From assembly GCA_046350855.1 (NCBI GenBank), contig JAXLZM010000005.1, positions 9,331 to 73,330 of the forward strand: a DNA stretch of 64,000 bases, read 5' to 3'. A program made the translations under genes and the position numbers. This document shows positions 2 through 51,442 of this stretch, in pieces. Numbering within the stretch: the first letter of the stretch is position 1; every line of letters starts with the position of its first letter. The notes below the pieces were generated by a model that saw only the letters and a list, made by a program, of their open reading frames with translations, searched no databases and was not told the DNA's origin. The stretch comes from Candidatus Anderseniibacteriota bacterium (GTDB taxonomy: Bacteria > Patescibacteriota > JAUYIX01).

Positions 2-928
2 TTTGATCTGCCCCGGACCTCCGACGAAAAAGTCGAGGACATCATCCGCACCAACATCGTGGCGCTCAAGGCGCTGATCGGCATCATGATCGGCCGCCTC
101 ACCCCCGAGGAAGACGCCTTGCTCGATCGCGCCCTCTACGACACCTACGCCAAAAAAGACATCACTCCCAACACCCAGAGTTTAGTTGAGGTGGAATTTC
201 CACTCATGCAGGACTTGCAAGAAGTCTTGGCCTCGACCGAGGGGTCTGAGAGTCTTGCCACGCGTCTGGCCAAGTTTACCGAGGGTACCTTTGCGGGGTT
301 GTTCAACAAGCCGACTAATGTGCAGATCAAAAAGCAGCTCGTGACCTTTAACATCCGCGACTTGGAGGATGAACTCCGACCGATTGGTATGTTCCTGGTG
401 CTCAACTTTATGTGGAACACCGTCCGGGCTGAACTCAAAAAGCGCATCCTGGTAATTGATGAAGCCTGGTGGATGATGCAGTACGAGGACAGCGCGCGCT
501 TTTTGTTCTCGATCGCTAAGCGGGCACGTAAGTACTACTTGGGCGTGACGACTATCTCGCAAGACGTGGCCGACATGTTGGCCTCCGACTTTGGTCGCGC
601 GGTCGTGTCCAACTCCTCGATCCAGATGCTGTTGCGACAATCGCCCTCGACCATCGATCAAATTCAAGAAGTGTTCCACCTGACTGATGGCGAAAAATTC
701 TTGCTACTTGAGAGCGATGTTGGAGAGGGAATCTTTTTTGCTGGACTCAAGCACGTCGCCATCAAAGTGGTCGCCAGCTACAGCGAGGACCAGATCATCA
801 CCTCCGACCCCAAACAGATCCTCGAGATCGAAAAAGCGAAGCGTGACTTTGCTGCTGAGGAGGAGCAAGGGGGCGCGCAACAAGCAGAGCCACCGGTTGA
901 GCCAGCGGGCGGCCCAGGAGGTGCCTAG
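2..928 (+). CDS. VirB4/TrbE/CagE-family type IV secretion ATPase, C-terminal fragment (gene continues upstream of window)
   Basis: Reading frame is open from base 2 with no upstream stop. It contains ILVIDEAWWMM (the VirB4 DEAW Walker-B-region motif) followed by RKYYLGVTTISQ (RK..TQ motif) and a C-terminal fold pattern typical of VirB4. Confidence 0.75.
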   Translation, partial: FDLPRTSDEKVEDIIRTNIVALKALIGIMIGRLTPEEDALLDRALYDTYAKKDITPNTQSLVEVEFPLMQDLQEVLASTEGSESLATRLAKFTEGTFAGLFNKPTNVQIKKQLVTFNIRDLEDELRPIGMFLVLNFMWNTVRAELKKRILVIDEAWWMMQYEDSARFLFSIAKRARKYYLGVTTISQDVADMLASDFGRAVVSNSSIQMLLRQSPSTIDQIQEVFHLTDGEKFLLLESDVGEGIFFAGLKHVAIKVVASYSEDQIITSDPKQILEIEKAKRDFAAEEEQGGAQQAEPPVEPAGGPGGA

Positions 929-3009: not shown

Positions 3010-5036
3010 GTAAGCGTCTGACACAGTTTGCCGTCTTGCTGATCGTCCTCACCCTGGCGCTCGGAGTACCGCGTCTCTCGCGTGCGACCGACCAGGATGA
3101 TTTGAGCGACGCACACGGTCAGGGTCCCTATGATGAGGTCTCCTGTAACGGTGCCAGTGAGGATGAACTCGACACGGGGGACCCGGCCGAGGATTTCTTT
3201 CCGCCTTTTCAGTTTGATACCAATGAACAGCACAACGACGGAGGTGGTTCGTTTACGGGGCAATACACCTTTCCGTTTAGCGACCAAGAAGTCTTTCAGT
3301 TGTTCAATCGGCGCTCCGAGCAGGCCACCGAGCCGCACGTCAATGTCACGATCGCACCTACCGAGGTCGAACCCGGCCAACCCGTCAGTCTGATCGCAAG
3401 CCTGGCCGACTTTAAAGACAACGGCAGCGCGCAAAACCTACAGTACGCAGTGGGGTTCTCGGTCGATGAGATCAGTCTGCAGGGCATTATGGCCGGTGGT
3501 AAAAAATTGCCGGAGAGTCCGACCGGCTCAAGCTGTGGACTGGTGACCCGTACACCCCAGGTGGATGGCGATGGCGACGGCATGGATGACAACTGGGAGG
3601 CCGCACACGGCCTCAATCCGACCGACCCGAGTGATGCCTTTGCGGACCCTGACAACGACTCGGCTGCGCAGTTTTATACCAACGGGGATGACGAGGAGCT
3701 CCAGGTTACGCCCGAGACGGCCGGTGGCCCAACCGGCGTCATGAACAACCTGGCCGAATTTACCTTTGACACTGACCCTAATCGGGCCGATACGGATGGC
3801 GACAGCATTACCGACGGTATGGAGATTATCGGGTTTGGTGGGCCGGCCGTTACCTTTAGTATCGAGCGACCGGTTGGTTCTGCCGTACAGGTACGCGCCT
3901 TTGCGGTGGGGGTCTCGGCCAAGCAAGATGCCGAGCAAGAGTTTAAAAATATCGTCAAACTCGATTCTTCGACCCGCACCTTTTTTATCAGCAATGGGGA
4001 GCACCTCAAGGGCCAGACTAAGACCCTCGAAGCCTTTACCGCGCCGGGCCAGACCGCTGTGATCGAGGCCCAGTTTGTCGGTTCCGAGGCCGAGCCTGAC
4101 TCCTTTGCCTATAGCTACGAGGTAGACGGTCAAGAGATCACTAATCCATCGCCCGCGCGCCATCGTTTGGAGGTTGCGGTCGATCCGACTCGGACACCCG
4201 GCACGACCATTCCGTATCAGATCGAAGCGGTCAACCCGGCTACCGGACAACTCGCGACCATGCGGGGGGTGATCCAGGTAGGGGAGCACCTGACCCTTGA
4301 GACCGATCCGGTCGAACCCGTCGCAGGTGGGCCGGTCACGGTGCGGGCGGTGTTGGCCTCGGGCCAAGATCCATTGCACTACTTGTACGAGTGGTCGCTC
4401 AACGATCAATTGGATGAACAAGCCTCTGGTATTGGCCGTAACGCGATCGAATTGACCGCTCCGGCGGCAAGTGGTGACGCGGTCACGGTGAACCTACGTT
4501 TGTTTTTAGTCGACACCAGTCAGCTGGTGGGGCAGGCGGCGTTGGATCTAGCGGCCAGTACACCGAGCGTAGCGCTCGAGGTGATCCCCGAGTCTCCCAA
4601 GCCTGGCGAGACCGTCACGGTCTTTGCACGGCCTAAGAATTTTCCGGTCAACTTTGATAGTGACGGCAACGGTGACAACGATGCGACACTACTTCGCTAT
4701 AGCTGGAGTGTGGATGGGAGCGAGCAACCCGTGCAGGAGAGCGCGGCGGGGTTCTCGAGCATCACTCTACCGGCGGGTGACCTCAATCAACAGCACAGTC
4801 TGAGTGTCCAGGTGCGCTCTGTCGGGGCTCACAGTGAGACGGCCGGAGCCGAGGCGAGCTTTACGACCGGGGTGGGCGTGACCGCTATCTCCGCACGGGC
4901 CCGAGCTGCGGGAGAAACTCTCTTGGCCTCGCTGGGTTCGGCCTTTCCACGCTACGGTGCGGCGGTGATTGCAGCCCTTGGTGTTGTCTCGCTACTCGGT
5001 TTGGCCTACTGGGGTCGCACACGGAGGACCGCATGA
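3006..5036 (+). CDS. Tail-anchored secreted/surface protein with TSP3-like repeats, paralog 2 of 3
   Basis: Has a signal peptide and the shared motifs CNGASEDELD, FFPPFQFD, VDGDGDGMDDNWEAAHGLNPTDPSDA and DTDPNRADTDGDSITDG, plus a C-terminal TM helix and basic tail. ATGA overlaps at both ends. Confidence 0.7.
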   Translation: MSKRLTQFAVLLIVLTLALGVPRLSRATDQDDLSDAHGQGPYDEVSCNGASEDELDTGDPAEDFFPPFQFDTNEQHNDGGGSFTGQYTFPFSDQEVFQLFNRRSEQATEPHVNVTIAPTEVEPGQPVSLIASLADFKDNGSAQNLQYAVGFSVDEISLQGIMAGGKKLPESPTGSSCGLVTRTPQVDGDGDGMDDNWEAAHGLNPTDPSDAFADPDNDSAAQFYTNGDDEELQVTPETAGGPTGVMNNLAEFTFDTDPNRADTDGDSITDGMEIIGFGGPAVTFSIERPVGSAVQVRAFAVGVSAKQDAEQEFKNIVKLDSSTRTFFISNGEHLKGQTKTLEAFTAPGQTAVIEAQFVGSEAEPDSFAYSYEVDGQEITNPSPARHRLEVAVDPTRTPGTTIPYQIEAVNPATGQLATMRGVIQVGEHLTLETDPVEPVAGGPVTVRAVLASGQDPLHYLYEWSLNDQLDEQASGIGRNAIELTAPAASGDAVTVNLRLFLVDTSQLVGQAALDLAASTPSVALEVIPESPKPGETVTVFARPKNFPVNFDSDGNGDNDATLLRYSWSVDGSEQPVQESAAGFSSITLPAGDLNQQHSLSVQVRSVGAHSETAGAEASFTTGVGVTAISARARAAGETLLASLGSAFPRYGAAVIAALGVVSLLGLAYWGRTRRTA

Positions 5037-7078
5037 GACGGTTTGTGTTGAGTTTGCTCGTCGTGCTCGTTGCAGGATTTTCTACCCTTGGTGGCCTGCT
5101 CCCGCTCCTGGTGCCACAAAAAGCCCAGGCCGTGCAAGCCCCAGAAAACGACGATATTTTTGATGTGGAGGCGTACAACGGAGCTCGCGAGGACGAGTTG
5201 ACTACCCGCCCCTTGGGCGAGTTCTTTCCGCCTTTTGATTTTAACTTTAGCTACAACTTTGACGTGGATGTCTCGGGAGGGGGCTTGTTTGGAGGCGGCG
5301 CCAACGCTGACGTCAACACTGATTTGCAATCCATTTTGCAGCCGCTCTTTACACCGCAAGAACAGTTCCAAAAACAGAGCAGCCGCTTTGAACCACCCCG
5401 GGCCAACATCACCCTCTCCACGGCCGGGATCCAGCCCGGAACGCAGCTCTCCGCTACCGCGCAGCCGCAATCGTTTAAGCAACAGGGCAGCGGCGAGGAC
5501 TTATTTTACGCCTGGGCTTTGGATACCGTCTCGCTCTCGGGGGTCGCGGCCGGGGCTGATCCGCTCGATCTCCCGCAAGCGTCCTCGCCGCGGGCCACGC
5601 ACTCTCGTGCAACTAAAACGGACAGCGATGGCGACGGAATGGACGACGATTGGGAGGTTCGCTATGGACTCAATCCCAATGATCCAAGTGATGCGGGGCA
5701 AGATCCCGATAGCGACGGCTACACTAACGACGTCTATAAAAACGAGAGCGGCGAGGTTTTGATTGTCGAACCCGCCACCTCGGCAGGACCGGCAGGCGGA
5801 CCCCTCACCAACCTCAAGGAGTACATTTGGGGCACCGATCCCCGTAATCCCGACACCGATGGCGATGGCTTTAGCGACGGCCAGGACATTGCCGGCTTGG
5901 GCCAGACTCAGATTTCGTTGACGGTTCCACCGGATGCCTCGGTTAACGATGCGCCAGTTTTGCGACTCACGATCTTGGGTCACTCACTCCAGGCCTTTGA
6001 ACAAGACAAGCCGCTCGTCAAACTCGACTCCAACACGGTTACGCTGACCGTGCGCGATGCCGAAAAACTTGATGTGCGCCTCGAGGCCAACAACGACGCG
6101 CCCGTGCCAGGGCAGGACGTCACACTCACGGCCACGCTTGGTCGTACGGATTTTCAGCCGGGGATTTTGTCCTACACCTGGTTTGTTAACAACGTGCCGC
6201 AGCAGGACGCCTCGGGGGAGAGTAAGTTCACCTATACCTACACTGTGCCAGAGACGGCTCAGCCGGGTGACGTAGTGTTGTTTAGTGTCACGGCGGTTAA
6301 CTTTGAGACCCGCCAGCAAGCCGAGGCGGAGCTCGAGATCCGTGTGGGAGAACTCGTGCAGCTCCAGTACGATCCGCAAAAAGTGGAGAGCGGTAAGGAT
6401 CTGACCGTGACCGCCACGATGGTCAATAACGCCGACCCAACCGATCTGGTGTTTCACTGGTCATTGGATGACCATGAACTCGACGATCAATCCGGTCAGG
6501 GTAAAACCTCGTTGACCGTGCCCATCCCCAAAGGTACGGGAGAAAAACACACCGTGGGCGTGCGCGTCACAACCCCCGAGGACTCAGCCGCTTTTGCCGA
6601 TAGCCAGACGACCTTGGAGGTGGCCCAACCCGCCATCAGCCTGGTCGTGGATCCGACCGCGGTCGCGCTGGGTGGTACCGTCACGGCCGTGGCCGTGCCG
6701 GAGCACTTTGCCTCGAGCGATTTACAGTTTTCTTGGACCATCGACAGCCAGCCCCAGCAGACCCAACCGAGCGAGAGTTCAATCGTGATTACAGCCAGTG
6801 ACTCCGGGACCCATACCGTTGGGGTACGGGTCCAGTCGGTGGGGCAGGGGGCCGAGAGTGCCACGGCCAGCGCTAGTTTTACCGTGGCGACTACCGCAGA
6901 GACGGCCTTGTCGGCCCCGGCCGGGTCTGGTGGTACTACTGCACCAGCTACCACGGTCGCCTCGGTGCGCCAGGCTTTTTTTGGTCGTCCGCTCAGCCTG
7001 GGGATCTTTTTTGGAGCGTTCTTTGTAGTGCTTGGTATAGTTACTGCGTTACTCATTCGCCGCAATGCGCTTTCTTAG
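5033..7078 (+). CDS. Tail-anchored secreted/surface protein with TSP3-like repeats, paralog 3 of 3
   Basis: Has a signal peptide, YNGAREDELT, FFPPFDFN, KTDSDGDGMDDDWEVRYGLNPNDPSDAGQDPDSDGY and GTDPRNPDTDGDGFSDGQD, plus a C-terminal TM helix (GIFFGAFFVVLGIVTALLIRRNALS). Confidence 0.7.
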   Translation: MRRFVLSLLVVLVAGFSTLGGLLPLLVPQKAQAVQAPENDDIFDVEAYNGAREDELTTRPLGEFFPPFDFNFSYNFDVDVSGGGLFGGGANADVNTDLQSILQPLFTPQEQFQKQSSRFEPPRANITLSTAGIQPGTQLSATAQPQSFKQQGSGEDLFYAWALDTVSLSGVAAGADPLDLPQASSPRATHSRATKTDSDGDGMDDDWEVRYGLNPNDPSDAGQDPDSDGYTNDVYKNESGEVLIVEPATSAGPAGGPLTNLKEYIWGTDPRNPDTDGDGFSDGQDIAGLGQTQISLTVPPDASVNDAPVLRLTILGHSLQAFEQDKPLVKLDSNTVTLTVRDAEKLDVRLEANNDAPVPGQDVTLTATLGRTDFQPGILSYTWFVNNVPQQDASGESKFTYTYTVPETAQPGDVVLFSVTAVNFETRQQAEAELEIRVGELVQLQYDPQKVESGKDLTVTATMVNNADPTDLVFHWSLDDHELDDQSGQGKTSLTVPIPKGTGEKHTVGVRVTTPEDSAAFADSQTTLEVAQPAISLVVDPTAVALGGTVTAVAVPEHFASSDLQFSWTIDSQPQQTQPSESSIVITASDSGTHTVGVRVQSVGQGAESATASASFTVATTAETALSAPAGSGGTTAPATTVASVRQAFFGRPLSLGIFFGAFFVVLGIVTALLIRRNALS

Positions 7079-7481
7079 ACTTTCCACTATTAGTACAAGC
7101 GTCAGCCTGAGCGTAGGCCTGTTCTTGGGTGCGACTCCCTTGGTGACGCACGCCCAGCAGCAAACCGATGCTTTTTGCATCAATCAAGCTTTTTATGCGC
7201 GCATCAGCCAGTACTACAACCTGGCGGTAGCCTTTGCGATTTTGGCGGCCATTTTTATGATCGTCTATGGCGGCTATCGCTTGGTCGTCTCGATCGGTCG
7301 CCCCGGTCTCATCGAGCAGGGCAAAAAGATGATCCAAAATGCCCTCATTGGTCTAATCATTGCGATCGTCTCGGCCGTGATCTTAAACATCCTCAACCCG
7401 CGCATTCTCAACCAAAATGGTGAACAGTGCGGCGCCGCCCCCAGTGCACTACATATTCAGACGGAGGTACTCTCAGCATGA
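7065..7481 (+). CDS. Small pilin-like protein (VirB2/TrbC-like topology: signal peptide plus two hydrophobic helices)
   Basis: 138 aa. Signal peptide ends THA/QQ. The mature part has helix LAVAFAILAAIFMIVYGGY, a basic loop IGRPGLIEQGKKMIQ, and a second helix ALIGLIIAIVSAVILNIL. It lies directly after the VirB4-like/surface-protein cluster. Confidence 0.5.
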   Translation: MRFLRLSTISTSVSLSVGLFLGATPLVTHAQQQTDAFCINQAFYARISQYYNLAVAFAILAAIFMIVYGGYRLVVSIGRPGLIEQGKKMIQNALIGLIIAIVSAVILNILNPRILNQNGEQCGAAPSALHIQTEVLSA

Positions 7482-8785
7482 GACGCTCGTATTTTTTCTT
7501 GATCGTAATCGTGGGAGGTATTCTGGCCGTCTTGACCACGCTCTTTTTTGTCTTTGACAACCCCTATCGCCGTCTCAACCCTGAGCCAACTCCCGTCGTT
7601 ACGGCCCCAACCCTGGACGATCAGCTGCCACCCAGTGCGGGCGAGGCCACCGACACCGAGTTGATCACCGTCCTGGAGCTACCGACCATTGGGTTGACCA
7701 CAGGGGTGGATGGACTGCGCTTAGTATTTTACGACAAGGACTCCAGCAAGATCGAAGTGACCGAGTTTGACGGCACCGGCCTACAAGAACTCTCCGACAC
7801 ATTGCTCGGGGTCGAGGCCATGGAGTTGTCTCCCGCCAAAGACAAGGCCTGGATGCGCTTGACCGACCCAGAGACCAAAGACCTAATCACACTGGTCTAT
7901 GACTTTAGGGCTAAAGAGGCGGTTCGGCTAGAGAATGGGATCAAGGCGATTGACTGGTCACCGGACGGGAGTGAACTGCTCTACTACGTCGACCGCAGCG
8001 GTAGCGCCCCGGCCCTCAAGCGCGTCAAAGCTAACGGCGTCGAGCCGCGTACCGTGCGCCAGGGCTTTACCGTACAAAACCCGGTCTTGGCCTGGTATGC
8101 CGAGGATCAGCTGGCCTATTGGCTGAGTCCCTCCTCGACCCGTCCGTCCTCCATCATCACGATGAACCTCTCTGGTAACAATGCCGTCGAGTTGGCCGCC
8201 ACGGCCCCTGCCGCCCAAGCTCTTTTTTCACCCGACGGCACCTACGCTCTGCTCGCCCAAAACAACCCCACCACCGGTAAGCCGCAACTTGCTCTCAGCA
8301 CGACCGCCGACCGTACCACTAGTGCCTTGCCGTTGACCACCTGGCTCGATAAGTGCACCTGGATGAACGACAGCGCCCGCATCCTCTGTTTTGTCCCGCG
8401 CGATCTGCCCGGAAACTTTGTCTACCCTGAGAGTGACACTGGAGCCAACGCCTACCGTGACCAGCTCTGGGTTATCGATGCCGCTACCGCCAAACCACAA
8501 TTGATTTACGACGTGCCGGGCTCGATCACGGACGCGACCAAGCCCTTTGCCTCCACCAACGGTAGCCGGCTGAACTTTATCTCCCGTGCCAGTGGCACGG
8601 TTGTCAGTCTGGAACTCGCCGATAAATTAGTGGCGCCCACCACGCCCAACGCTTCCACCAACCTGATCACTCCCGCCGGTGCCACGACCGCTCCCGGTAC
8701 GAGCTCGAGCTCAGGCGGGAGCGGTTCTGGTACGGGCAGTCTGCCAACCGGCAGTAGCACCAGTGGCTCAGGCACGACTTATTAA
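7478..8785 (+). CDS. Membrane-anchored WD40-like (PD40/TolB-type) beta-propeller protein with Ser/Gly/Thr-rich C-terminal tail
   Basis: ATGA overlap with the upstream gene. Has an N-terminal TM anchor and repeated DWSPDGSELLYY / FSPDGTYALLAQ PD40-like motifs. Start chosen at MRRSYFF (7478) rather than the 7427 ORF start. Confidence 0.6.
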   Translation: MRRSYFFLIVIVGGILAVLTTLFFVFDNPYRRLNPEPTPVVTAPTLDDQLPPSAGEATDTELITVLELPTIGLTTGVDGLRLVFYDKDSSKIEVTEFDGTGLQELSDTLLGVEAMELSPAKDKAWMRLTDPETKDLITLVYDFRAKEAVRLENGIKAIDWSPDGSELLYYVDRSGSAPALKRVKANGVEPRTVRQGFTVQNPVLAWYAEDQLAYWLSPSSTRPSSIITMNLSGNNAVELAATAPAAQALFSPDGTYALLAQNNPTTGKPQLALSTTADRTTSALPLTTWLDKCTWMNDSARILCFVPRDLPGNFVYPESDTGANAYRDQLWVIDAATAKPQLIYDVPGSITDATKPFASTNGSRLNFISRASGTVVSLELADKLVAPTTPNASTNLITPAGATTAPGTSSSSGGSGSGTGSLPTGSSTSGSGTTY

Positions 8786-8802
8786 TTTTGAGTAAAAGAA
8801 AA

Positions 8803-8828
8803 GGGCCACAGGATGAATCCTGTGGCCC
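8803..8828. terminator. Hairpin between convergent genes (bidirectional terminator candidate)
   Basis: Hairpin gggccacagg-atgaat-cctgtggccc. A T-rich run follows on the minus-strand reading, and an A/T-rich tract precedes it on plus. Confidence 0.5.
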
Positions 8829-8854
8829 AGTAAATAGCGAGGTTCTCGCTTAGG

Positions 8855-9322
8855 TTATCTCAACTGACGAGCCAAGTTGTTGGCCTGGCGGGTCTGTCGA
8901 GCTTGATGTCGCTTGAGCTCCTCCTTGTTGTAGGTCTCACGCGTCAGCCGCGCAGCCTGTTGCCCTCTCGTGGTCATCCGGTGTTCCACCCGGTTGCCCA
9001 GGTTCTCCACCGGATCCGTTGCCGCGATCACACTGGAGGTGATCGCGTACAGTCCAGGGTGCTGGAGCAACAGCTTGGCAGCACGGTTGTCCTGCAGGAT
9101 GACCTTGTACCTCTCGGTGATCTCCTTGAAGTCCCGGTTGGCCTCCGCCGTATACGGCATGACGATGTGTCGCCGATACGGTGCAAGCCGGTGAAAGAGC
9201 TCCTCCGCGACCAAGAGTTGGTTCTCTCGTTTTTCTGCCAACTCTTTGAGTTGTAGCGGTGTTTTGAGACGCAGTTCACGCTTTGTGGGCGTGACCAGGT
9301 GCAGTGCACTTGAACCTTCCAT
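8855..9322 (-). CDS. Hypothetical protein
   Basis: 155-aa ORF bounded by the hairpin terminator. No recognisable domain. Confidence 0.45.
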   Translation of the reverse strand: MEGSSALHLVTPTKRELRLKTPLQLKELAEKRENQLLVAEELFHRLAPYRRHIVMPYTAEANRDFKEITERYKVILQDNRAAKLLLQHPGLYAITSSVIAATDPVENLGNRVEHRMTTRGQQAARLTRETYNKEELKRHQARQTRQANNLARQLR

Positions 9323-9389
9323 TGCTACCTCTAGTACCTAGCCGAACCTTGCCAACGTGTGGATTGCTCGATAGGGTCTCCTTTCCGGG

Positions 9390-9977
9390 TTACTTTTCGA
9401 CATGTAGATGGCAACGTTGTCGTGCCGGACCGTAGTGCTGGCACTCCGCGTCGTCAAAGACATGTCGTAGGATTTCGCTCTCACACACTTCGCACTTGTT
9501 GTGGCCGGCAGAACTGGCCAGCCAGATGAGCGCAGCGAGTCGGTCGAGACCGGGTTTTCCGGCGTGTGGCCATTCGACGAGTGACCAGGTCAGTGCCACG
9601 ATCCGATCAGTCTTGAGACAGCGTCGTTGTAGTTCATCCTGAACCAGATCGAGATCTGCAAAAGGACTGTCGGGGGCCGGCTCAAAGTGGGCAAACAAAT
9701 CGATCGGCAGGGTCTCACTCCAAAACGTGCTCTTGTCGATGCGGGGTCGATCGATCGTGTACGAATCCTCCTGTATGGAGAGGACTCCGACGATTTGCCC
9801 GGGCAGGTACTCAAAGCTGGAGTGTACCTTAGTAAGGTGCTCGACGATTTGGGGACTCTCGTTAACCTTTTTAAAGGTCGCGAGGCCAATGAGACGGTGA
9901 GGATAGTGAGGTGCCGTTTTTTGTTCGATAGTAGTGACACCGCCCGGAAGAACCCGGAGCGGTTTAGTGCTCAGCAT
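9390..9977 (-). CDS. Hypothetical protein with C-terminal Cys/His cluster (putative zinc-binding)
   Basis: ORF trimmed to the internal ATG (MLSTKPL) to avoid overlap with the recG 3' end. C-terminal HNKCEVCESEILRH...CQH...C pattern. Confidence 0.45.
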   Translation of the reverse strand: MLSTKPLRVLPGGVTTIEQKTAPHYPHRLIGLATFKKVNESPQIVEHLTKVHSSFEYLPGQIVGVLSIQEDSYTIDRPRIDKSTFWSETLPIDLFAHFEPAPDSPFADLDLVQDELQRRCLKTDRIVALTWSLVEWPHAGKPGLDRLAALIWLASSAGHNKCEVCESEILRHVFDDAECQHYGPARQRCHLHVEK

Positions 9978-10086
9978 GGTTGGTCTCCCTTGGGTTGGGT
10001 GCCTTGTGTGTATATGGGCTTGGTAAAGGGCGGCGGAACAGCGACCGGAGATTCTGCAACAGTTATTCGCGTAGGTCAAGTCTACT

Positions 10087-12177
10087 TTACTCGAGGTGCA
10101 ACTGCGTGGCAACGCGACCGACTCGCTGTTTGAGGAGCGGCCACTGACGTAGGCTCGGATCGGCCTGGAGTACGGCCACGGCGGCCTCTTTGGCCTGGGC
10201 TAAAATTCGTGAATCGAGGACCGTCGCAAACTTAAAACTGACCTGACCATGTTGGCGAGTACCAAACGGTTCACCCGGACCGCGTAGCTCGAGATCCGCC
10301 TCAGCTAGGCGAAACCCATCGTTGGTGGTGCAGAGGAGTTGCAGACGCTTGCGGGTCTCGGGGGTGGCGGCATCCGGTACCAGCAAACAGAGCGAGGCTT
10401 TACTGCCGCGGCCGACCCGACCGCGGATCTGGTGCAGCTGAGCCAGTCCAAAACGGTCCGCACTCAGGACAACCATCAGTGTGGCGTTAGGGATGTCGAT
10501 CCCGACCTCGATCACGGGGGTGGTAGCGAGCACCTGGTAACGGCCGGCCCTAAAGTCTCCGATCACTTGGTTTTTTTCTTGGTCGCTCATGCGACCGTGC
10601 AACAAGCCAACCCTGATTGGTTGAGGGGCGCTGCCGAGCTGTTTTTGTAATTCTGCGTACTCTGCTAAGACTGCCCGGGCTTGTAACTTGTCACTCGCCT
10701 CGATGAGCGGGAACATCACAAAAACCTGTTGGCCGCCCGCCACGGTTTTTTTAATCGTCTTGAGTAAGGTTGTGTGCGCTTTTTTTGGAACAATTTTGGT
10801 GGTGATTGGGGCGCGTCGCTTAGGTTTTTGATCGAGGACCGAGAGATCCAGATCACCGTAGAGGGTGAGAGCCAGGGAGCGGGGGATCGGTGTAGCGGTC
10901 ATGGAGAGCAAGTGTGGTAAATGATTGGGTAAACGCACTTTGGTCTTAAGGAGCTGCCGCTGTTTGACCCCAAAACGGTGCTGCTCATCTACAACGACGA
11001 GGTGTAATTGTTTAAAGGTAACGCGCGGCTGCAAAATGGCGTGCGTGCCGACCACCACCGAGAGCGTGCCAGCCGCGAGTTGTTTTTTGAGGGCTACGGT
11101 CTCGGCTGAACTACTCACCAGGAGCGCCACCGTGATGCCAAACGGTTTGAGGAGCGTCGTCAGGGTCGTGTAATGCTGCTCGGCCAAGATCACGGTTGGT
11201 GCTAAAACCGCCGCTTGACCACCACTGCGTGCCACCGCCAGTAAGGCCATAGCCGCGACTACGGTTTTCCCCGAGCCAACGTCGCCCTCAAGCAGGCGGT
11301 TCATGGGGTGAGGCTTGGCGAGGTCTTGCACGATTTGCCAGGCTGCTTTGCGCTGCGCGTCGGTCAGTGTATAGGGGAGCTTGGCGACAAACTCTTGTAG
11401 GAGCTCCGGTACGACCGGAGTAGGGCGCGCCTGCACCTGGATCAGGGAGGCCCGCTCGCGTAAGACAAAGAGAGAGAGCAAAAACAGCTCTTCAAAAGTC
11501 ATACGCAGGCGCGCCCGGTCCAAGGCCTCTGGGTTCGACCCCGGAAAATGCAATTGTGTGAGCGCCAGGCTACGGTCGAGCAGGTCGTACCGCTTGCGTA
11601 CACTCGGCGGTACCACATCGGGGGTGTGCTGGACCGTTTGCAAGGCCTGCTTGATCCAGTACCGCATTTGCTTAGTCGTGATCCGCCCGGTCAGGGGATA
11701 GATCGGCTGCAGCGCCCCCTTACCAAGGGCGATGGCCGGATCACGCACCACCTCCGGGCTCTCCAACGTCAGTCGACCCTTGTAGCGACTAATCTTGCCA
11801 CGTAAAAAAGCGATCTTGCCCGCGAGTGCCTCCACCAGGTACGGCTGGTTGAACCAGGTTACCGCGAGACTACCTGTCTCATCATTGAGCAACCCCTCTT
11901 GGATGGTTAGTCGTCGCCTAAAACTGCGTCGATTGGTAATCGAGACTACTTGCGCACAAATGAGAACCGGCTGTCCGTTAGCCCCGGTCGGTATACCGAT
12001 CGACCCAATCGAAACCGGTCGACCGTAGTGCTCGTGGCGGCGGGGGAGATGTTCGGCCAACTCTTGTACGGTCCGGATACCCAAGGTTTGTAACTCACGC
12101 ACCGCGGCGGGTCCCACACCGTGCAGACGTGAGACTGGGTCGCTGGGTACTACACGCTGAGTCAGGGTTACGGACAT
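10087..12177 (-). CDS. recG: ATP-dependent DNA helicase RecG
   Basis: GDVGSGKT Walker A, DEQHRFGV Walker B, wedge/OB N-domain and C-terminal RecG helicase motifs. Start trimmed to MSVTLTQ (12177) so it does not overlap the tRNA. Confidence 0.9.
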   Translation of the reverse strand: MSVTLTQRVVPSDPVSRLHGVGPAAVRELQTLGIRTVQELAEHLPRRHEHYGRPVSIGSIGIPTGANGQPVLICAQVVSITNRRSFRRRLTIQEGLLNDETGSLAVTWFNQPYLVEALAGKIAFLRGKISRYKGRLTLESPEVVRDPAIALGKGALQPIYPLTGRITTKQMRYWIKQALQTVQHTPDVVPPSVRKRYDLLDRSLALTQLHFPGSNPEALDRARLRMTFEELFLLSLFVLRERASLIQVQARPTPVVPELLQEFVAKLPYTLTDAQRKAAWQIVQDLAKPHPMNRLLEGDVGSGKTVVAAMALLAVARSGGQAAVLAPTVILAEQHYTTLTTLLKPFGITVALLVSSSAETVALKKQLAAGTLSVVVGTHAILQPRVTFKQLHLVVVDEQHRFGVKQRQLLKTKVRLPNHLPHLLSMTATPIPRSLALTLYGDLDLSVLDQKPKRRAPITTKIVPKKAHTTLLKTIKKTVAGGQQVFVMFPLIEASDKLQARAVLAEYAELQKQLGSAPQPIRVGLLHGRMSDQEKNQVIGDFRAGRYQVLATTPVIEVGIDIPNATLMVVLSADRFGLAQLHQIRGRVGRGSKASLCLLVPDAATPETRKRLQLLCTTNDGFRLAEADLELRGPGEPFGTRQHGQVSFKFATVLDSRILAQAKEAAVAVLQADPSLRQWPLLKQRVGRVATQLHLE

Positions 12178-12213
12178 AGGCAACAGTGTACACCGCACTA
12201 CTTGGTGCGGCAC

Positions 12214-12290
12214 TGGTGTGCCCGGGAGGATTCGAACCTCCGACCCCCAGCTCCGCAAGCTGATGCTCTAATCCACTGAGCTACGGGCAC
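12214..12290 (-). tRNA. tRNA-Arg (anticodon GCG read from loop TTGCGGA)
   Basis: Cloverleaf GTGCCCGTAGCTCAGTGGATTAGAGCATCAGCTTGCGGAGCTGGGGGTCGGAGGTTCGAATCCTCCCGGGCACACCA on the minus strand, with encoded CCA. Confidence 0.8.
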
Positions 12291-12324: not shown

Positions 12325-12564
12325 TTAGAGCTTAAACGTCCGCGCCACCAGATCCACGTGACTTTCTTCTTTACTGGGATCTTCGGGCAACAATGGTAAC
12401 AGGATGTCGCGGATTTTCAAGGGGTTCTCGTTGAGCAGCTCAATAGACAGCTCGTTGATCACCCGCGTGCGGCGTTGCAAGTGGAGTTGTTTGAGGGTGG
12501 GTGGTTCATACAAAATCCAAAATTTGGAGAACTCACGCCAGGGGTAGAACTGCTCGTTGAGCAT
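12325..12564 (-). CDS. Small hypothetical protein
   Basis: 79-aa ORF following the tRNA. No domain recognised. Confidence 0.3.
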   Translation of the reverse strand: MLNEQFYPWREFSKFWILYEPPTLKQLHLQRRTRVINELSIELLNENPLKIRDILLPLLPEDPSKEESHVDLVARTFKL

Positions 12565-12656
12565 GAGTCCCAGACTAAAAAGCGTACGCGCAGACGTTTG
12601 TTTTTACGGTGACACTGGTAAAAAGGACCAAGGCGAGGTGAGCCAAGACGGCAGCA

Positions 12657-14422
12657 CTAAGGTAGAGACGCAGGACGATCGTGAGGGCCACCAGACCGGC
12701 AAAGACGCCGACAATATATTGATAAACCAACCGCGTAGCGCGCCGCGGTTGAGTGAACTCTCACCTGTAAATGGGAACACCCCGCTGGGCCGCGGACTGC
12801 GTATCGCCGTTTTTGGCCCTTTCGATCAGACGACCGCCTTCCGTCGATGACGGGTTGCCCGCTACCGTCTCGCTCATGGCGCGATTGGGCGCTCCAGGAG
12901 TGATGGTTTGGGCGTTGACCTGCTTGGTAAGATTGGCCGTGCCTTGCCCGGTGGCGGCAGCGGCTCAGGCTTTTTTTTACGATTAAAATGAGGCCCATGG
13001 CGCGTTTGGTTTAGCATGGCTTAGCGCCGACTTGCCGAGACCGCAGTGCCGCCCGCGACGATAGTGGTATGGTTGACCCTGCTCGGGGCTCGTAGAGCGC
13101 GTTTGGGTAACTCGGGCACAATCGTGAACTGGTAAGGATTTCAGCGAAACTGACCTGTTCGATCGCGTCTAACTCTTTGCGCTGGTCTGGGGTCGTCGCA
13201 ACGAGATGGCATGACCACCCGCCCCGGTCGGGCGCAGGGTTCGCTGGGTGCGGCACGTAGTCCCTTAGGTGTTAGTGGGTAACCAAAGCCGAGCACGAGC
13301 TCGAACCCGGTCACGTCGATGCCGCGCGAGGCGATGTCCTCACGGCGACCAAGACTCGGTACTTACCATCAGCGCCCGCCAGCGCGTCGCGGCGTTGTCC
13401 GAGGGAGCGGTTGGCGTAACTCGGCTGCGGTGTGGCCGAGATCACGGATCTTACGGGTCAGTTTTTTGGCACCGTACAATTTCAGGTGTGTAAAGATCAG
13501 CGTTGTGCCGCGGTACTTCGTATATTTGGCTGCGAGATCCAACTTAGACTCTTTTAAACATAAAGATTTCTTGGGTAACGCGCTCGGCGGTGAGCCTGCG
13601 GGGCTACCTCGATACGGATCGGTAGCCGCATGTAGCGCTTGGCCATACGCATGATTTGTCCGGCACGGTGGCCGAGAACAGTACAGAAGGTCTGTCGCTC
13701 GTAGGCTGCTCAGAAAACTGTTCGATCTGCGGGCAAACCCCATATCGAGCATACGATCAGCCTTACTCAACACGACGATCCGCGTGGCGTCTAAGCACCG
13801 TTCTTTGTTGTAGGTGATCGTTGAGCTGACCGCGTTGTTGAGGATCACGACGTGCGGATTTTTGCAGGCAGCGCACCGTTAGTGTCCGCATCGAGGCGCC
13901 TCCGATTAGACCGCCGTGCGCAGCCAAAATCCGGCGCCGACTGTACGTGGAGCGCCTCGTCCACTTGCAGAGCGAGTTCCCGAGCTGGCAGGATGATCAA
14001 CCTGGACCGCGCGCACTTTATCGAGCTGCAGCAGCGGGATCCCGGGTGCGCCAAGGTTCAACGGTGCTGTCGGCAATGCCGTCTACATCTTTACCTTCGA
14101 TCGCCACGGGAATAGCCTGCCGCGTTGACGGGCGTGGGGGTGGCGTAGTTGAGTTGTGCGAGTTTACCGAGGAGGGTTTTGCGCGATGCCGAGTCCCGAA
14201 AATCCAGAAATGGCAAGGGCTGATACTGCACTAGCTGACGATACTGGTACTGGTTGAACAAAGTTCGAAGAAAAGAGAGCTACCGATGTTCCGGTAGCTC
14301 AGGTCGTGTTGTGGGTCTGACTTAGGCGGCGTAGGCGCGTCGCCGTCGCCGCAGCAGGGCGAGCGGCTCGCGAGTGGCGAGAGAAAGAGCTCCAGTGCCT
14401 CCTGGTCGTTGTGCCTGACCAC
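12657..14422 (-). pseudogene. Degraded DEAD-box RNA helicase (frameshifted, catalytic motifs mutated)
   Basis: Consecutive minus-strand ORF fragments carry, in order, AHPGSRCC (motif I GSGKT ruined), LIILPARELALQV (motif Ia), VVLSKADRMLDMGF (motif II DEAD changed to SKAD), LVATTPDQRKELD (motif V remnant) and CRHRARHGQ (motif VI remnant). They are split over at least five frames. Confidence 0.6.
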
Positions 14423-14445
14423 GTGTCGGGTCTGACCGATTGCCC

Positions 14446-15402
14446 TTACGTTTTTCCTGGATCAAGACACTGGCGGCTTGCAGGAGACCGACACGATAAC
14501 GAGCGAGCGCCTGCCGTGGTCCAGGCGTTCGATGGCGCGCATGGCCGTGTCAGGGTTATTCGAGCAGATACGCGGATATATTCGCCCTGCGCCAACATTC
14601 TCGGGCGCATGGGGAGCGTTTCGCACGCTGCGAACGGTCGCGCCCGGTCAAAGTCGATCATGACCAGCGAGGTTCCGCGCATGCGTGCACTTGAGCAACA
14701 CACTGGCGTTGCAGTTGTTGGCGAGGCGGGCAGCGTGTTCCAGTAGCCGACCGGGTAGCTGGTCAAAGGCCTCCCGGTTGATCTGCAGTCTGATCTTTCT
14801 CGTGAGGGTCGCGTGATACCATCGATAAGGTGCAACATGGTGTGCTGCACACTCCTGGTACCGTACCCAGGTTCCCAACGTTCCTGATCGTAAAGGCGCG
14901 CACGGCGTCTTGAAAACCGCGCGTCTCCTTAATCCGTATTTGCATGGCGTTCTTCCTCGCTTTTAAATGAGCATCAAAACTAGGCGCTACCCTACCCGAT
15001 CTTGGCGCACGACGCAATCTTTGGCAGCATGACCCAATGGTCGTACGCAATTGGTGGCACCTGGTTCAATACACAGGGCGTACCGGCCTTCGGAGCCGGC
15101 GTTGCGCTGGCGGTTACCACAGCAGTCCTCAATCTCTGAACCATCCCTCGGCTGATACTTCGTATGCCAGCCCACGTGGTCGAGCGCGGCTTTTGCCTAA
15201 CCAGGTTTGGTACTTTGCATTTGGGCCGGATTTGCAATACCGTAGCTAATTTTGTGACCTCGCTCACGCCGATTGTGGTAAGTACTGACAGGAACTGTTC
15301 CATCCCCGTCATTACGCCCACGGTGTCGCTCGGTGATGACGGTCTCGCCTCGTCGAGCCAGGTAGTGCTGCGTCGAATCAATCGTTCAAAATCGTAGATC
15401 AA
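14446..15402 (-). pseudogene. Unidentified degraded gene (overlapping frameshifted minus-strand ORF fragments)
   Basis: Four overlapping minus-strand ORFs of 76-136 aa in different frames form one ~1 kb fragmented reading unit. No confident family assignment. Confidence 0.3.
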
Positions 15403-16048
15403 GCCCAGCTACCAAAGGTGTTTATCTTGTGCTGCTCGTAACCATTTCAGATGTTAGTCGGCAGAGTCCCCTTTATCGGCATCCAGCTTCGGTGGCGGCC
15501 GTCTCCTGCTCACGCCCTGTTCTGGCTTCAACTCGGTGGATCGCCGGACGCGAGCCCTGGAATGCCGCCCGGCATTACCGGCTGATCAGCGCTTCGCCTT
15601 CGTAGCGACGGGACGACCGTGGCGAGATGGTGCCGATGGTCACGAGTACACCCGGCGGACGAGTGCGCCGGTGTATCGACGGTTCAAACGATGGGTGGAT
15701 TTAAGGCGAAATCGCTTTGCTCGTCGATCTCAGGAAAGAGCGTCGCGGCGACCGTATTCCCGGTGTACCTGGTCGCCGAGCTTCGTCCAGCGGCAAAGAG
15801 CCTACTGCACAGAAAGGCGTTATGCATTGGGTTTTTTTTTTTTTATTAGGGGGATCTGTCGCAGGGAGCCTGAGTCACGCGGACAGGCAAACACGCATAC
15901 TGTTTGCTCACGTGCCAGGTGCCACACATTACTTCCCGCGCGCCGAAAGAGCACTTGGCAAAATTGTTTGGATCTATTCCCGCCTTCGGATGTTTGGGCT
16001 GGGCTTGTGCACGGGATTGGATACCCTCCCGGGTCTGTTGCCGCGGTG

Positions 16049-16519
16049 ATGACCCCCGGAGCTGGCACACGGCCGGGTCGCACGGTCAACACCTATACCA
16101 TTGTGTTGGTCCTCTCAATTTTTGGAGTGTTGGTCCATCTGGCTTGGTATGTGCTCCACCGCCTCAAGCACTACGCGCAGCTCCCGCACAATACGCAAAC
16201 GATTCTGCGTACTTTTTGGCTGCGACCGATCTGGCTCGTCGGTTGTCTACTTGCGCTTGGTTGGGTACTCGCTAGTCCCAAGTCACATATCGGTCTGGCC
16301 TGGCGTAATGTGCTCTCTGGGAGCGCCATACACTATGACCGACAACTGCTCGATCGCTACGCACACATTAAAAATAGTTCCGAGCAGGACGTGTTGGTCC
16401 CGGCCCTAACTGATGTGCCGACCACGCTCTTTTTTGATGACATCACCAGCGATCCGCTCGATTGGCGTAATACCAGCTACGCACGTTTTTTTGGCAAACG
16501 AACTATCATCCGTCGCTAG
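16049..16519 (+). CDS. Hypothetical membrane protein (two predicted TM helices)
   Basis: C-terminal 156 aa of a long Arg-rich spurious-looking ORF. This part has a plausible hydrophobic profile (IVLVLSIFGVLVHLAWYVL; IWLVGCLLALGWVLA). Confidence 0.3.
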   Translation: MTPGAGTRPGRTVNTYTIVLVLSIFGVLVHLAWYVLHRLKHYAQLPHNTQTILRTFWLRPIWLVGCLLALGWVLASPKSHIGLAWRNVLSGSAIHYDRQLLDRYAHIKNSSEQDVLVPALTDVPTTLFFDDITSDPLDWRNTSYARFFGKRTIIRR

Positions 16520-17174
16520 CCGCAGCGCGTACCGCCGCAACAAAGGCAGCAACTTTTTTTAAATCTTTGCGCGTCCCATCCGGTGCATCGGTTTTACTTT
16601 TGCAATCGACGCCCGCTGGATGGCTGGTCGCAATCGCAGCCGCGACGTTATCGGGTCCTAGGCCACCCGCAATAACCACCGGGATCTTGACGCTCTCGAC
16701 GATTTGCCGATCGAGGTTCCAGTCGTGGGTTTTGCCGGTGGCGCCGATGATGGTCCCTTTAGGTAGCACGGTATCGGTCAACAAAAAATCAGCGATGCCA
16801 TCATAGCGCTTGGCTTCCTCAATGCTCTCGGGTCCGGTCACGGGGATCACGCGCATTAGCTGGACCGTGGGACACTCTTTTTTGAGCCAACCTGCATCCT
16901 CCGGCGAGAACTGGTCCGGAAACGTCCCAATCTGCACGATGTCCGGCTTAAGTTGTTTGAGAATCTCCGCCATGTAGTGTCGATCGTGCGACAAAAATAG
17001 TGCCACCCTTTTTGCCGGAGGCCTCACCGTTGCAAAAATCTCCTGTGCCTCGGTGCTCGATTTTTCTCGGGGGAATTTTCCTTCACCAACTAATACTCCA
17101 ATGTGATCCACCCCAGCCTTGACCAGGGCGCGGGCTTCTGTGGCGGATTGGGTTTCGTAGATCTGGATAAGCAT
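16506..17174 (-). CDS. trpF: Phosphoribosylanthranilate isomerase
   Basis: MLIQIYETQSATEARALVKAGVDHIGVL and a C-terminal GGLGPDNV...GVDCKSKTD...KD..K match the PRAI TIM-barrel pattern. Start set at the internal ATG. Confidence 0.75.
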   Translation of the reverse strand: MLIQIYETQSATEARALVKAGVDHIGVLVGEGKFPREKSSTEAQEIFATVRPPAKRVALFLSHDRHYMAEILKQLKPDIVQIGTFPDQFSPEDAGWLKKECPTVQLMRVIPVTGPESIEEAKRYDGIADFLLTDTVLPKGTIIGATGKTHDWNLDRQIVESVKIPVVIAGGLGPDNVAAAIATSHPAGVDCKSKTDAPDGTRKDLKKVAAFVAAVRAAASDG

Positions 17175-17199
17175 TGTCTTAGCGTACACTAATCGCCAG

Positions 17200-17574
17200 C
17201 TACTTTTTGTGGTAGGCACCCGCCCGGTTTTCTTTGAGGCGTAGGGTGACGACTTTTTTGATCAGGGCGACTGGCAACGGTCTGTCGTGAGCAAACTGTA
17301 AGGTACCAACCGAGGTTTTGTAGGGTTTGAGTTCCGCCCTGAGTTTTTTATGCATCCCGGTCGAACCACCCGGAAACAAACTGCAATGTTTTTTAAACGC
17401 CCCAAAAGCTATCAACATGCCGTTGTATTTGTAGTAGGGGATTTGGTAGCTAATACCTTCGCTGGCCTTAGGTGCGACCGCCCGAATCACTGTGCGCAGC
17501 TGCCTGAGGTGCGCTTGAGCCTCTTTGGGCGCGGCCGCGATGTAAGCCGTCACGGTTTTGGGAGCTTTGTGCAT
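17200..17574 (-). CDS. DUF1801-family (YdhG-like) protein
   Basis: 124 aa with the pattern typical of DUF1801 proteins (AYIAAAPKEAQ...ISYQIPYYKYNGMLIAF...). Confidence 0.5.
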   Translation of the reverse strand: MHKAPKTVTAYIAAAPKEAQAHLRQLRTVIRAVAPKASEGISYQIPYYKYNGMLIAFGAFKKHCSLFPGGSTGMHKKLRAELKPYKTSVGTLQFAHDRPLPVALIKKVVTLRLKENRAGAYHKK

Positions 17575-17577
17575 GCC

Positions 17578-18624
17578 CTAAGTGTACCGCACCAGCCGTT
17601 GCACGATTGCTCGCGCGTCCCGGCCAACGCCACTGAGTAACCCCGAGCTTACGGTCGCTTGAAATTTAAGTCCCACAAAATAGAGTCCCGGTATGGTCGA
17701 ACTACCCGTGCGGTGTACGGGTAGTTTGTCCGGATCCAGCCCCGGGATTTTGATCCAAGAGTAGTTGGGCACAAATCCCGTCGCCCAAATAATACTAGTA
17801 AAATGCTCTTTGGTTTGGTCGGCAAAAAGGAGTGCATCCCCAGAGACCCCCACGACGGCTGGCTTTAGGTGCACTTTTTTATTTTTGAGCAGATCGCGTA
17901 GTTCTGTGCCGATAATCGGCTCAGGTCGACGAGCTAGGGCAGAACCCGGCCAATGGCTGACCGAAGCTCTGAGGAGTCCAAGTCTTTTGAGCCAAACCAT
18001 CCAACTCTTCCCCAAAATAATTTGCCGGATAAAACGAGGTTGCGTACGAGAGGCAACCGTGACCGGATGGGTCGGGGCGAGTTCCACCGCAATTTGCGCT
18101 CCCGAGTTACCGAGGCCAACTACGAGCACGCTGCCTTTTGGAATCTGTCTGGGGGTACGGTAATTCGCGGTATGTATTTTAAAAACCCGTGCGCTGAGTG
18201 AGGCAGCAAAGGGCGGAACGTACGGTTTTTGGAACGGCCCGGTCGCAACAATTACATTTTTTGCCTCGTAGGTGCCCTGGGTTGTGTCTATGACAAAGTG
18301 GTCTGCCTGTTTTTGTAGGGTGCGGACCTGGGCCTGCAACTGGATCGGTAGCGCAAACCGCTTGGCGTACGATTGTAGGTAGGCCGCGACTTGATCTTTA
18401 CTTGGGTACTCATCTGGGCGACCAGGAAAAGCGAGTCCCGGTAACGCGTTAAAGGCGTTGGGCGAAAATAGTCGTAAGCTGTCGTAGCGTTGCCTCCAAC
18501 TCTGTCCGAGCGCGCTAGCTTGGTCCAAAAGCAAAAAAGACAACTTAGTTTGTCGTAGGTAATATCCCGTTGTGAGACCTGCTTGCCCTGCCCCGATAAC
18601 GATCACGTCGTACTGAGTCGACAT
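17578..18624 (-). CDS. FAD-dependent monooxygenase / NAD(P)-binding oxidoreductase (FMO/CzcO-like)
   Basis: N-terminal DVIVIGAGQAGL Rossmann motif and a second GLGNSG dinucleotide motif. 348 aa. Confidence 0.7.
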   Translation of the reverse strand: MSTQYDVIVIGAGQAGLTTGYYLRQTKLSFLLLDQASALGQSWRQRYDSLRLFSPNAFNALPGLAFPGRPDEYPSKDQVAAYLQSYAKRFALPIQLQAQVRTLQKQADHFVIDTTQGTYEAKNVIVATGPFQKPYVPPFAASLSARVFKIHTANYRTPRQIPKGSVLVVGLGNSGAQIAVELAPTHPVTVASRTQPRFIRQIILGKSWMVWLKRLGLLRASVSHWPGSALARRPEPIIGTELRDLLKNKKVHLKPAVVGVSGDALLFADQTKEHFTSIIWATGFVPNYSWIKIPGLDPDKLPVHRTGSSTIPGLYFVGLKFQATVSSGLLSGVGRDARAIVQRLVRYT

Positions 18625-18628
18625 GGCT

Positions 18629-18940
18629 TTAGGATTTTGTACTTCGTTTTGCTAGCACTCCTCTAACAGAAGGACTGAGCGCTTTATCTTTGCGGTGAAT
18701 ACAGCCGATCCAACAGCACGGTCGTCGCATGCCCTCTTTGAGCTCGCTGATCGTGCGTCGCACGTGGTCAGCGCGTGTCGCGTCCTGCTTGACAAAGGTG
18801 ACCCAGCAAATCCACTCGTTGCGGGCGAGTGGCGTGAGACTTTTCCATTCTGTCAGTGCTTCTCGATCGGCTGACAAAGCTTTTTTTAAATCCGTCGGGA
18901 GCGCATGAACCGTACCGCCCGCGACACTTTTTGTGCTCAT
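18629..18940 (-). CDS. YdeI/OmpD-associated family protein (short)
   Basis: LPTDLKKALSADREALTEWKSLTPLARNEWICWV pattern. Start trimmed to MSTKS to clear the tRNA-Ser. Confidence 0.45.
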   Translation of the reverse strand: MSTKSVAGGTVHALPTDLKKALSADREALTEWKSLTPLARNEWICWVTFVKQDATRADHVRRTISELKEGMRRPCCWIGCIHRKDKALSPSVRGVLAKRSTKS

Positions 18941-19002
18941 GAGAGTACTGTACCAAATTAAGACGATACTGTTTGTTCGTATTGTACCTAGCAGCCATGT
19001 GG

Positions 19003-19092
19003 TGGCGGAGAGGGTGGGATTCGAACCCACGAGACCCGTAAAGGTCTAACAGTTTTCAAGACTGCCGCCTTCAACCGCTCAGCCACCTCTCC
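19003..19092 (-). tRNA. tRNA-Ser (anticodon TGA), long variable arm
   Basis: GGAGAGGTGGCTGAGCGGTTGAAGGCGGCAGTCTTGAAAACTG...GGGTTCGAATCCCACCCTCTCCGCCA on the minus strand. Confidence 0.85.
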
Positions 19093-30124: not shown

Positions 30125-30299
30125 GAGTTGTAGTGCTACTAGTGGGCTCGATCTCTGATCGAGCCCCTCTTTTTGTGCAAGTTGACAAAAGAGCCTTTTT
30201 AGTGTAAGGTGTGTGTTTGCTCTTTAACTGGTACGTCTAGAACCCGTGGCATGGTGCTGTGGGTTGTCGGACAAGCCAAGTACCAAGGAGAACACTCAA

Positions 30300-30971: not shown

Positions 30972-31277
30972 TTCCTTGGAACTCATAGAGACCACCTGGT
31001 CTCTTGGTTCCCGCCCTCGGAAGACACATGTCTTCCGAGGGTATTTTTTATCTGCTACTATTTTTTGGGATCGCGACTAGTCAGGCTACAGCTTGACCAA
31101 TCAAAATCTCGGTTCATTCTAGGCCAGGATCCCGTCGGTCAAGACTTACGGGAGCGTGCTTGCAGTGAGCCAAATAAAACATGACTTGGTGTAGTTAGTT
31201 GGAGAGCTTGCAGCTCCAAACATAGATTCAGTCGGGAGATATTCAACCGACGGTGACACGGATGGCTTTCTACACAC

Positions 31278-31421
31278 AACTTCACGGATTCCGACGGCAA
31301 CCTCAACTTCGCCTACATCAACCCCAATGGCAACGGCAGGCGCAAGCTCAACTACAACTGGATCAACCACCTCAGCAATCAGTGGAACACCGACAATCGT
31401 TTTCTCGCCGTCCGCAAGAAA
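31278..31421 (+). repeat. DGR template repeat (TR)
   Basis: Invariant A-rich copy (AAC codons) of the VR. Lies between the target gene and avd/RT. Confidence 0.85.
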
Positions 31422-31432
31422 TGTTTTATCTA

Positions 31433-51425: not shown

Positions 51426-51442
51426 CTGTGCTTGCTTGATCG

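Follow-up and report, generated by a model that had tools for sequence, protein, structure and literature searches.

Frame-broken genes between RecG and PRAI

The window analysed here, a 64-kb stretch (64,000 nt, in which all positions are counted), belongs to a metagenome-assembled genome (MAG) of 'Candidatus Andersenbacteria' and contains, between the genes for RecG and phosphoribosylanthranilate isomerase (PRAI, trpF-like), a tract in which four neighbouring genes, one of them coding for a DEAD-box helicase, are broken into fragments. No intact gene was found between a 79-amino-acid (aa) open reading frame (ORF, 12325-12564) and PRAI (16506-17174, minus strand); the ORF map of the tract is a mosaic of short, overlapping ORFs across all frames, as an initial annotation made from the sequence had described. 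Pfam searches with the ORF fragments and with stop-masked whole frames returned only DEAD matches below the cut-off (best E-values of 0.17 and 0.1). The genes were mapped by frameshift-aware dynamic-programming alignment to proteins of relatives, and then to the intact proteins of Logan assembly contigs (run SRR26348421), which were reached through cluster mates of the window proteins. The relatives' loci used for comparison were L081 (an 868-kb ENA contig) and L082 (GCA_964537325.1). Together, the four genes carry ~63 frameshifts and two stops.

The helicase gene (13049-14211, minus strand) corresponds to a 398-aa RhlE-like DEAD-box RNA helicase in its intact form. A hand-stitched minus-strand translation matched RhlE-like helicases of Patescibacteria (E = 8.6e-102, 60% identity, 96% coverage), the best database relatives carrying the Joint Genome Institute (JGI) name RhlE. 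The frameshift-aware alignment to the intact allele covered residues 1-388 of 398 over 14211..13049 with 81% identity, and contained 24 frameshifts and one in-frame stop. The underlying gene is homologous to RhlE-type helicases from end to end, with full-length PF00270 and PF00271 homology, and its motifs follow the same, canonical order. Unlike those helicases, the window copy has no single open frame, and its motifs I, II and VI deviate from the canonical AxTGxGKT, DEAD and HRIGRTxR, reading ADS-TV (I), SKAD (II) and CRTQRTLRPTG (VI, at ~13240). The intact allele has AQTGTGKT, PTRELA, DEAD, SAT and HRIGRTARAG; SAT and DIASRGIDV are retained in the window copy. The segment LVATTPDQRKELD is the one that follows motif VI (...ISF-ATPDQRKELDAIE). 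With its frameshifts, its stop and the three altered motifs, the window copy cannot encode a helicase.

The initial annotation had recognised a DEAD-box helicase in successive minus-strand pieces, with many frame changes rather than a single indel, and both the stitched match and the alignment support it on these points; the frameshift-aware alignment it called for gave a non-functional copy with no intact motif I, II or VI. It also rightly assigned LIILPARELALQV to motif Ia and VVLSKADRMLDMGF to a DEAD motif changed to SKAD. Two other motif assignments were mistaken. In AHPGSRCC, taken for GSGKT, the AH comes from the end of TLAH (aligned with TLAF immediately after the P-loop) and an out-of-frame GIPLLQ segment follows, while CRHRARHGQ, taken for HRIGRTGR, lies out of frame in the neighbouring 227-aa gene, the true motif VI being the one given above.

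This neighbouring gene (12328-12998, minus strand) encodes a 227-aa membrane protein and has 10 frameshifts, all of them within 12577-12988, and no stops. After frame correction, its product is 91% identical to the intact Logan protein P0252 and 63% identical to the L081 orthologue. A search with the frame-corrected protein yielded no relative above 63% identity; the close intact allele was reached via cluster membership. The 79-aa ORF, deposited as MFO0705070.1 and previously regarded as a separate small unit, is the undamaged C-terminal part (79 codons) of this gene.

Beyond the helicase, a gene for a 210-aa hypothetical protein (14325-14945, minus strand) contains nine frameshifts and no stops, is 84% identical to the intact allele when frame-corrected, and is intact in Logan contig L084; no Pfam family was found for the 210-aa protein. 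The fourth gene (15037-16519, plus strand) encodes a 498-aa multi-pass membrane protein with weak, sub-threshold similarity to PF19528 (DUF6056 / GT_STM0557_N). It has 20 frameshifts and one stop, and the frame-corrected identity is 70%. Its last lesion lies at ~16075, and the final 147 aa match the intact allele exactly; the ORF at 16049-16519 (MFO0705071.1, 156 aa) is its C-terminal stub. Both MFO0705070.1 and MFO0705071.1 were clustered with the full-length Logan proteins in the protein collection. The second minus-strand unit proposed in the initial annotation (14446-15402) has a real core in the 210-aa gene (14945..14325), the remainder being antisense or out-of-frame readings of the N-terminal part of the 498-aa gene. 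Similarly, in the ORF at 15536-16519 (327 aa), which had been described as Arg-rich, the last 147-156 aa are genuine, whereas the Arg-rich part is out of frame.

We also observed that in L082 the orthologous 498-aa gene (2781-4264 of that locus) was called in two pieces of 403 and 90 aa, with X runs in the translation. The X runs suggest masked bases (N) in the DNA, and the L082 record may have a problem of its own at this gene.

Gene order, flanking genes and the deposited record

The relatives share one gene order: PRAI, a 499-aa membrane protein on the opposite strand with weak PF19528 similarity, a ~208-aa protein, nrdG/nrdD (in L081 only), the helicase, a ~225-aa protein and RecG. The comparison with syntenic relatives, also proposed in the initial annotation, showed that the tract follows the order of L081 and L082 gene for gene. 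The order is thus ancestral and the tract holds no inserted element, which removes the earlier suggestion that it is the relic of one. Rfam at gathering thresholds found six tRNAs in the whole window and no other family; an rRNA or other non-coding RNA origin of the tract, the alternative envisaged earlier, was rejected since tRNAs were the only Rfam matches in the window.

Both flanks of the tract are intact. On the left are RecG (10087-12177, minus strand, start ATG at 12177; MFO0705069.1) and tRNA-Arg(GCG) (12214-12290, minus strand), the latter identical in Logan contigs L085 and L086. Bacterial tRNA-Arg usually has the anticodon ACG; the window copy has GCG. On the right is PRAI, 100% identical to NCBI MFO0705072.1 from the 79,666-nt contig of the MAG. 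The window PRAI and RecG are 81.7% and 75.6% identical, respectively, to their counterparts in L081. A scan of genome contigs with RecG recovered only relatives of ≤44% identity, the matches being dominated by the universal VVDEQHRF motif, and blastx of the tract against the ORFs of those 80 loci gave only distant homologues of the 79-aa ORF.

The sole proteins annotated between RecG and PRAI are MFO0705070.1 (79 aa, U0517_03885) and MFO0705071.1 (156 aa, U0517_03890). These consecutive locus tags bracket the damaged zone, meaning that the Prokaryotic Genome Annotation Pipeline (PGAP) called nothing inside it, not even a pseudogene. The garbled tract belongs to the deposited record.

Intact allele in a near-identical population

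Five Logan contigs were aligned with the window. L085 corresponds to 6188-12270 and L084 to 13309-19028; L086 (1103 nt) lies between them, and the three overlap by 30 and 28 nt, tiling the whole locus. L087 and L088 correspond to 49242-51820 and 51939-53672, respectively. In the merged Logan sequence of the locus, all four genes are intact (227, 398, 210 and 498 aa). This is a clean, independent assembly with matching flanks: the left flank differs from the window by 10 substitutions and no indels in 6389 nt, and the right flank by seven substitutions and no indels in 2953 nt. The L087 region adds two substitutions and one indel in 2580 nt, and the L088 region one substitution and no indels in 1734 nt. 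Outside 12577-16075, the total amounts to 20 substitutions and one indel in 13,656 nt, i.e. 0.15% (99.85% identity).

Inside this zone the picture is entirely different. A MAFFT alignment of the window with the intact allele contained 572 substitutions, 57 deletions and 31 insertions between 12577 and 16075; with these 88 indels, ~21% of the 3,621 alignment columns differ, 16% by substitution. An intact allele therefore exists in a population that is 99.85% identical to the window. The sole near-identical data set that we found, the Logan contigs, carries this allele and does not share the lesions; a 34-mer taken from a block of perfect conservation had no match in a scan of JGI metagenomes. 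The Logan graph (k = 31) has two breaks in this locus, one at the tRNA (12270) and one in the region of the conserved helicase motif V (13309).

The zone is narrower than the limits of 12557-16520 initially given for the tract, and both of its edges are sharp and placed within genes. The zone opens with the loss of one A from a run of six (A6 to A5) at 12577 and closes with a 12-nt insertion, GGCACACGGCCG, at 16064-16075 (plus strand), which resembles a noisy copy of the following GGTCGCACGGTC and may mark a join seam, judging by this resemblance. The 79 and 147 codons of the two edge genes that lie outside the zone are 100% identical to the intact allele.

Character of the differences

Within the zone, the sequence switches between scrambled patches, 3-15 nt in length, and perfectly matching stretches that extend to 111 nt at most. 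The differences are clustered: 63 difference blocks were counted in 12577-13300 (110±4 in shuffles), 124 in 13300-15059 (204±5) and 163 in 15060-16075 (252±8). In bins of 250 nt, 11-23% of the columns differ up to 14826, and 5.5% in the bin 14827-15076; the following bins reach 30%, 34%, 42% and 49% towards the right edge.

The substitution spectrum is asymmetric between the strands. On the plus strand, we counted 108 C>T and 128 T>C against 59 G>A and 45 A>G (C↔T 236 vs G↔A 104), and 20 of the 22 isolated substitutions are C↔T on this strand, in genes of either orientation. The 17 single-nucleotide differences in the flanks are balanced, with seven pyrimidine and eight purine transitions. Each substitution class in the zone is about as frequent as its reverse, and the base composition is unchanged. 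Per site, AT→GC changes (223/1484 = 0.150) exceed GC→AT changes (221/2057 = 0.107); spontaneous bacterial mutation is AT-biased, the opposite of what the zone shows. Clean 1-nt deletions fall in runs of at least two identical bases in 11 of 12 cases (44% expected), mostly in G runs. Although deletions outnumber insertions, the two together shorten the zone by just 42 nt.

The most damaged part of the zone contains a T13 homopolymer at 15832-15844 (plus strand), exactly where the initial annotation had placed it. No other homopolymer in the window is as long, and the intact allele has no such run, its sequence at this position being non-repetitive (GGTGAGCGCGTTACGCAC). The T13 run is not ancestral. 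Phase variation at this run was considered and rejected, given that the intact allele lacks the run, whose host gene moreover has 20 other frameshifts. Taken together, bursts of differences, under-called runs, spurious low complexity and two-way base confusion on a single strand were all found, and in their make-up the differences resemble measurement noise.

Further lesions were found in indispensable genes of the same contig. In nrdD (48123-50275), the anaerobic ribonucleotide reductase gene, the reading frame is interrupted once, by a -1 shift; compared with L087, one C of a C3 run is missing at 49300 (C3 to C2). A further two changes, both T>C, come after the deletion, in a stretch of 52 nt (49300-49351), and one of them turns the TGC Cys codon in the ...SMCCRL... 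stretch into CGC; nothing else differs in the 2,580 nt compared, and nrdD is intact in L087, from the near-identical population. The pheT gene (53227-55660), which codes for the phenylalanyl-tRNA synthetase beta chain, changes frame at an A7 run (54927-54933), and its tRNA_synthFbeta Pfam domain is shared out between the two resulting ORFs; one added A at the run would restore the frame and joins ...LLSVVKK to NIATGQGAMSIYELGRTF. The pheT shift was read from the window sequence; L088 stops at 53672, which is 1.26 kb before the shift. The two are housekeeping genes with lesions of the under-called-run type.

Origin of the damaged zone

The tract at 12577-16075 is probably an unpolished, low-accuracy sequence patch in the MAG, most likely derived from few single-strand long reads. 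One or very few uncorrected long reads, all of one strand, would have supplied the 3.5-kb stretch; the patch would have bridged or filled a place where the short-read graph breaks, and would never have been polished. In hybrid or low-coverage metagenome assemblies, patches made of uncorrected long reads or gap fills show the same abrupt, gene-independent borders and bursty substitutions with small indels. They also share the under-called runs, the spurious long homopolymer, the single-strand error asymmetry, a clean independent assembly and further run-length frameshifts elsewhere on the contig. Most probably, the organism carries four ordinary, intact genes here, coding for the 227-aa membrane protein, the RhlE-like helicase, the 210-aa protein and the 498-aa membrane protein.

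Several points weigh against this explanation. Substitutions outnumber indel events by ~6 to 1, which is richer in substitutions than expected from typical raw long-read error, although some of the mismatches may be scrambled indels that were aligned as such. For a raw read of ~85% identity, perfect stretches of 60-111 nt are long, so that the patch would need partial polishing or very bursty errors; in both respects, the tract is unlike typical raw-read profiles. The comparison population is 0.15% different and not the same strain, and a real strain-specific allele is conceivable. We must also note that the technical origin (long read, gap fill or failed polishing) was inferred from the pattern of differences; a literature search on SRR26348421 and on long-read MAGs of Andersenbacteria returned nothing on the assembly method.

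The view taken in the initial annotation, that these are old pseudogenes in neutral reductive erosion or the relic of an inserted element, is the least probable of those we considered, and we regard it as very improbable. It would account for the many frameshifts, the altered catalytic motifs and the absence of PGAP gene calls in the zone, and Patescibacteria genomes are indeed reduced. However, a zone with ~21% of differing columns next to flanks with 0.15%, in a population where all four genes are intact, would need ~100 times faster decay than its surroundings, and the perfect blocks of up to 111 nt show that the tract shares the recent ancestry of its flanks. Moreover, the zone disregards gene borders and ends inside genes, its changes are clustered and strand-asymmetric rather than independent, its spectrum lacks AT bias, almost no length was lost (-42 nt), and the gene order is ancestral without an inserted element. 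Divergence matching that of the flanks, decay of whole genes, and independent, strand-symmetric, GC→AT-biased changes with net deletion were all sought as marks of a pseudogene tract and not found. The pseudogene tracts of Mycobacterium leprae, Rickettsia prowazekii and Sodalis glossinidius likewise contain adjacent genes that are readable only by frameshift-aware alignment. Lesions in those genomes respect gene units, keep pace with neutral divergence, arise largely as independent events, and show deletion and AT bias; none of these traits was observed in the zone. In consequence, given the contrast with the flanks, the in-gene edges and the bursty two-way C/T confusion, ordinary decay cannot explain the tract. 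Import of an old decayed allele, or a sister strain regaining intact genes, is excluded by perfect blocks of 40-111 nt.

A real and recent local event, in which one strand was exposed or re-synthesised over ~3.5 kb, for instance by error-prone repair or synthesis of the break-induced type, and clustered mutations killed four dispensable genes, would fit the strand asymmetry, which is constant across the zone whatever the gene orientation, as well as the sharp edges and the left-to-right density gradient. The four genes may be dispensable, and the tract is really present in the deposited record. We nevertheless consider such an event unlikely: 16% substitutions, 88 indels and multi-base scrambles stand beside flanks that differ by 0.15%, and we know of no bacterial mechanism giving such a load in one stretch beside flanks of this kind. 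Near-equal C>T and T>C counts point to base confusion and not to directional damage such as deamination, the T13 run arose from non-repetitive sequence, and the run-length frameshifts in nrdD and pheT indicate the data quality of this contig. The mutation clusters known near DNA breaks, from kataegis-like showers and break-induced replication mutagenesis, are likewise local and strand-coordinated over a few kb, but they are directional (such as C to T), far less dense and free of multi-base scrambles, whereas the confusion in the zone is two-way and affects 11-49% of the columns. That the tract is real, with one event in one strain re-synthesising or damaging a single DNA strand over 3.5 kb and leaving hundreds of clustered changes coordinated by strand, four genes destroyed and the other parts of the genome 99.85% identical to sister strains, is in our estimate slightly less probable still; if true, it would be a mutation shower of unprecedented density and an extreme form of local hypermutation undescribed in bacteria. 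About as unlikely as the local event is an artefact of another sort, in which reads of more than one strain or species were merged into a single consensus, or a draft was mis-polished with short reads of paralogues or orthologues from other community members. The graph breaks at the helicase motif region and the tRNA imply that the locus is repeat-like in the community, and the mosaic pattern, in which perfect blocks adjoin divergent patches, would agree with such mixing. The patches, however, resemble no functional orthologue (DEAD became SKAD, and KLLEEY became KYTKY), the frame is broken about every 55 nt where true orthologue differences would favour third codon positions and keep the frame, and the single-strand C↔T asymmetry is not predicted.

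With an uncorrected sequence patch as the preferred explanation, the tract is most likely without biological significance, and four normal genes are probably present. The existence of all four genes intact in the 99.85%-identical population speaks in the same way against the ongoing reductive evolution proposed initially. The case matters for quality control: a public, PGAP-annotated MAG has a 3.5-kb garbled stretch that hides four genes, and two truncated 'hypothetical proteins', MFO0705070.1 and MFO0705071.1, are now in protein databases. Patches of this type imitate reductive evolution, and pseudogene numbers could be overestimated because of them when genome reduction in Patescibacteria is studied.

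Other observations in the window

A 332-aa ORF with a reverse-transcriptase domain (RVT_1, E = 5.8e-25) lies at 31832-32830 (plus strand). It is preceded by an ORF-poor flank (30995-31832) with a G9 run at 31810, and just upstream, at 30237-30995, ORFs overlap on both strands, the minus-strand ORF scanned there being without a Pfam match. The locus could be a retron, a group II intron or a diversity-generating retroelement. The mutations in the damaged tract are not adenine-specific, and the reverse-transcriptase locus is therefore not linked to it; action of this enzyme as a diversity-generating retroelement on the tract was rejected for the same reason, and also because the changes include indels and span 3.5 kb.

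In L081, a cluster of nrdD, nrdG and a 72-aa gene (6728-9920 in L081, 47849-50958 in the window) separates the 208-aa gene from the helicase. L082 lacks the cluster at this place, and in the window and its Logan allele it lies ~34 kb away. The position of the cluster reflects a rearrangement among close relatives.

Three tandem paralogues of ~680 aa occupy 928-7078 (plus strand) and share 31-69% identity with an L081 protein of 677 aa. They are followed, at 7149-8785, by a small gene resembling pilins of type IV secretion systems (T4SS) and a gene of 420-452 aa. The block as a whole is kept beside RecG in L081.

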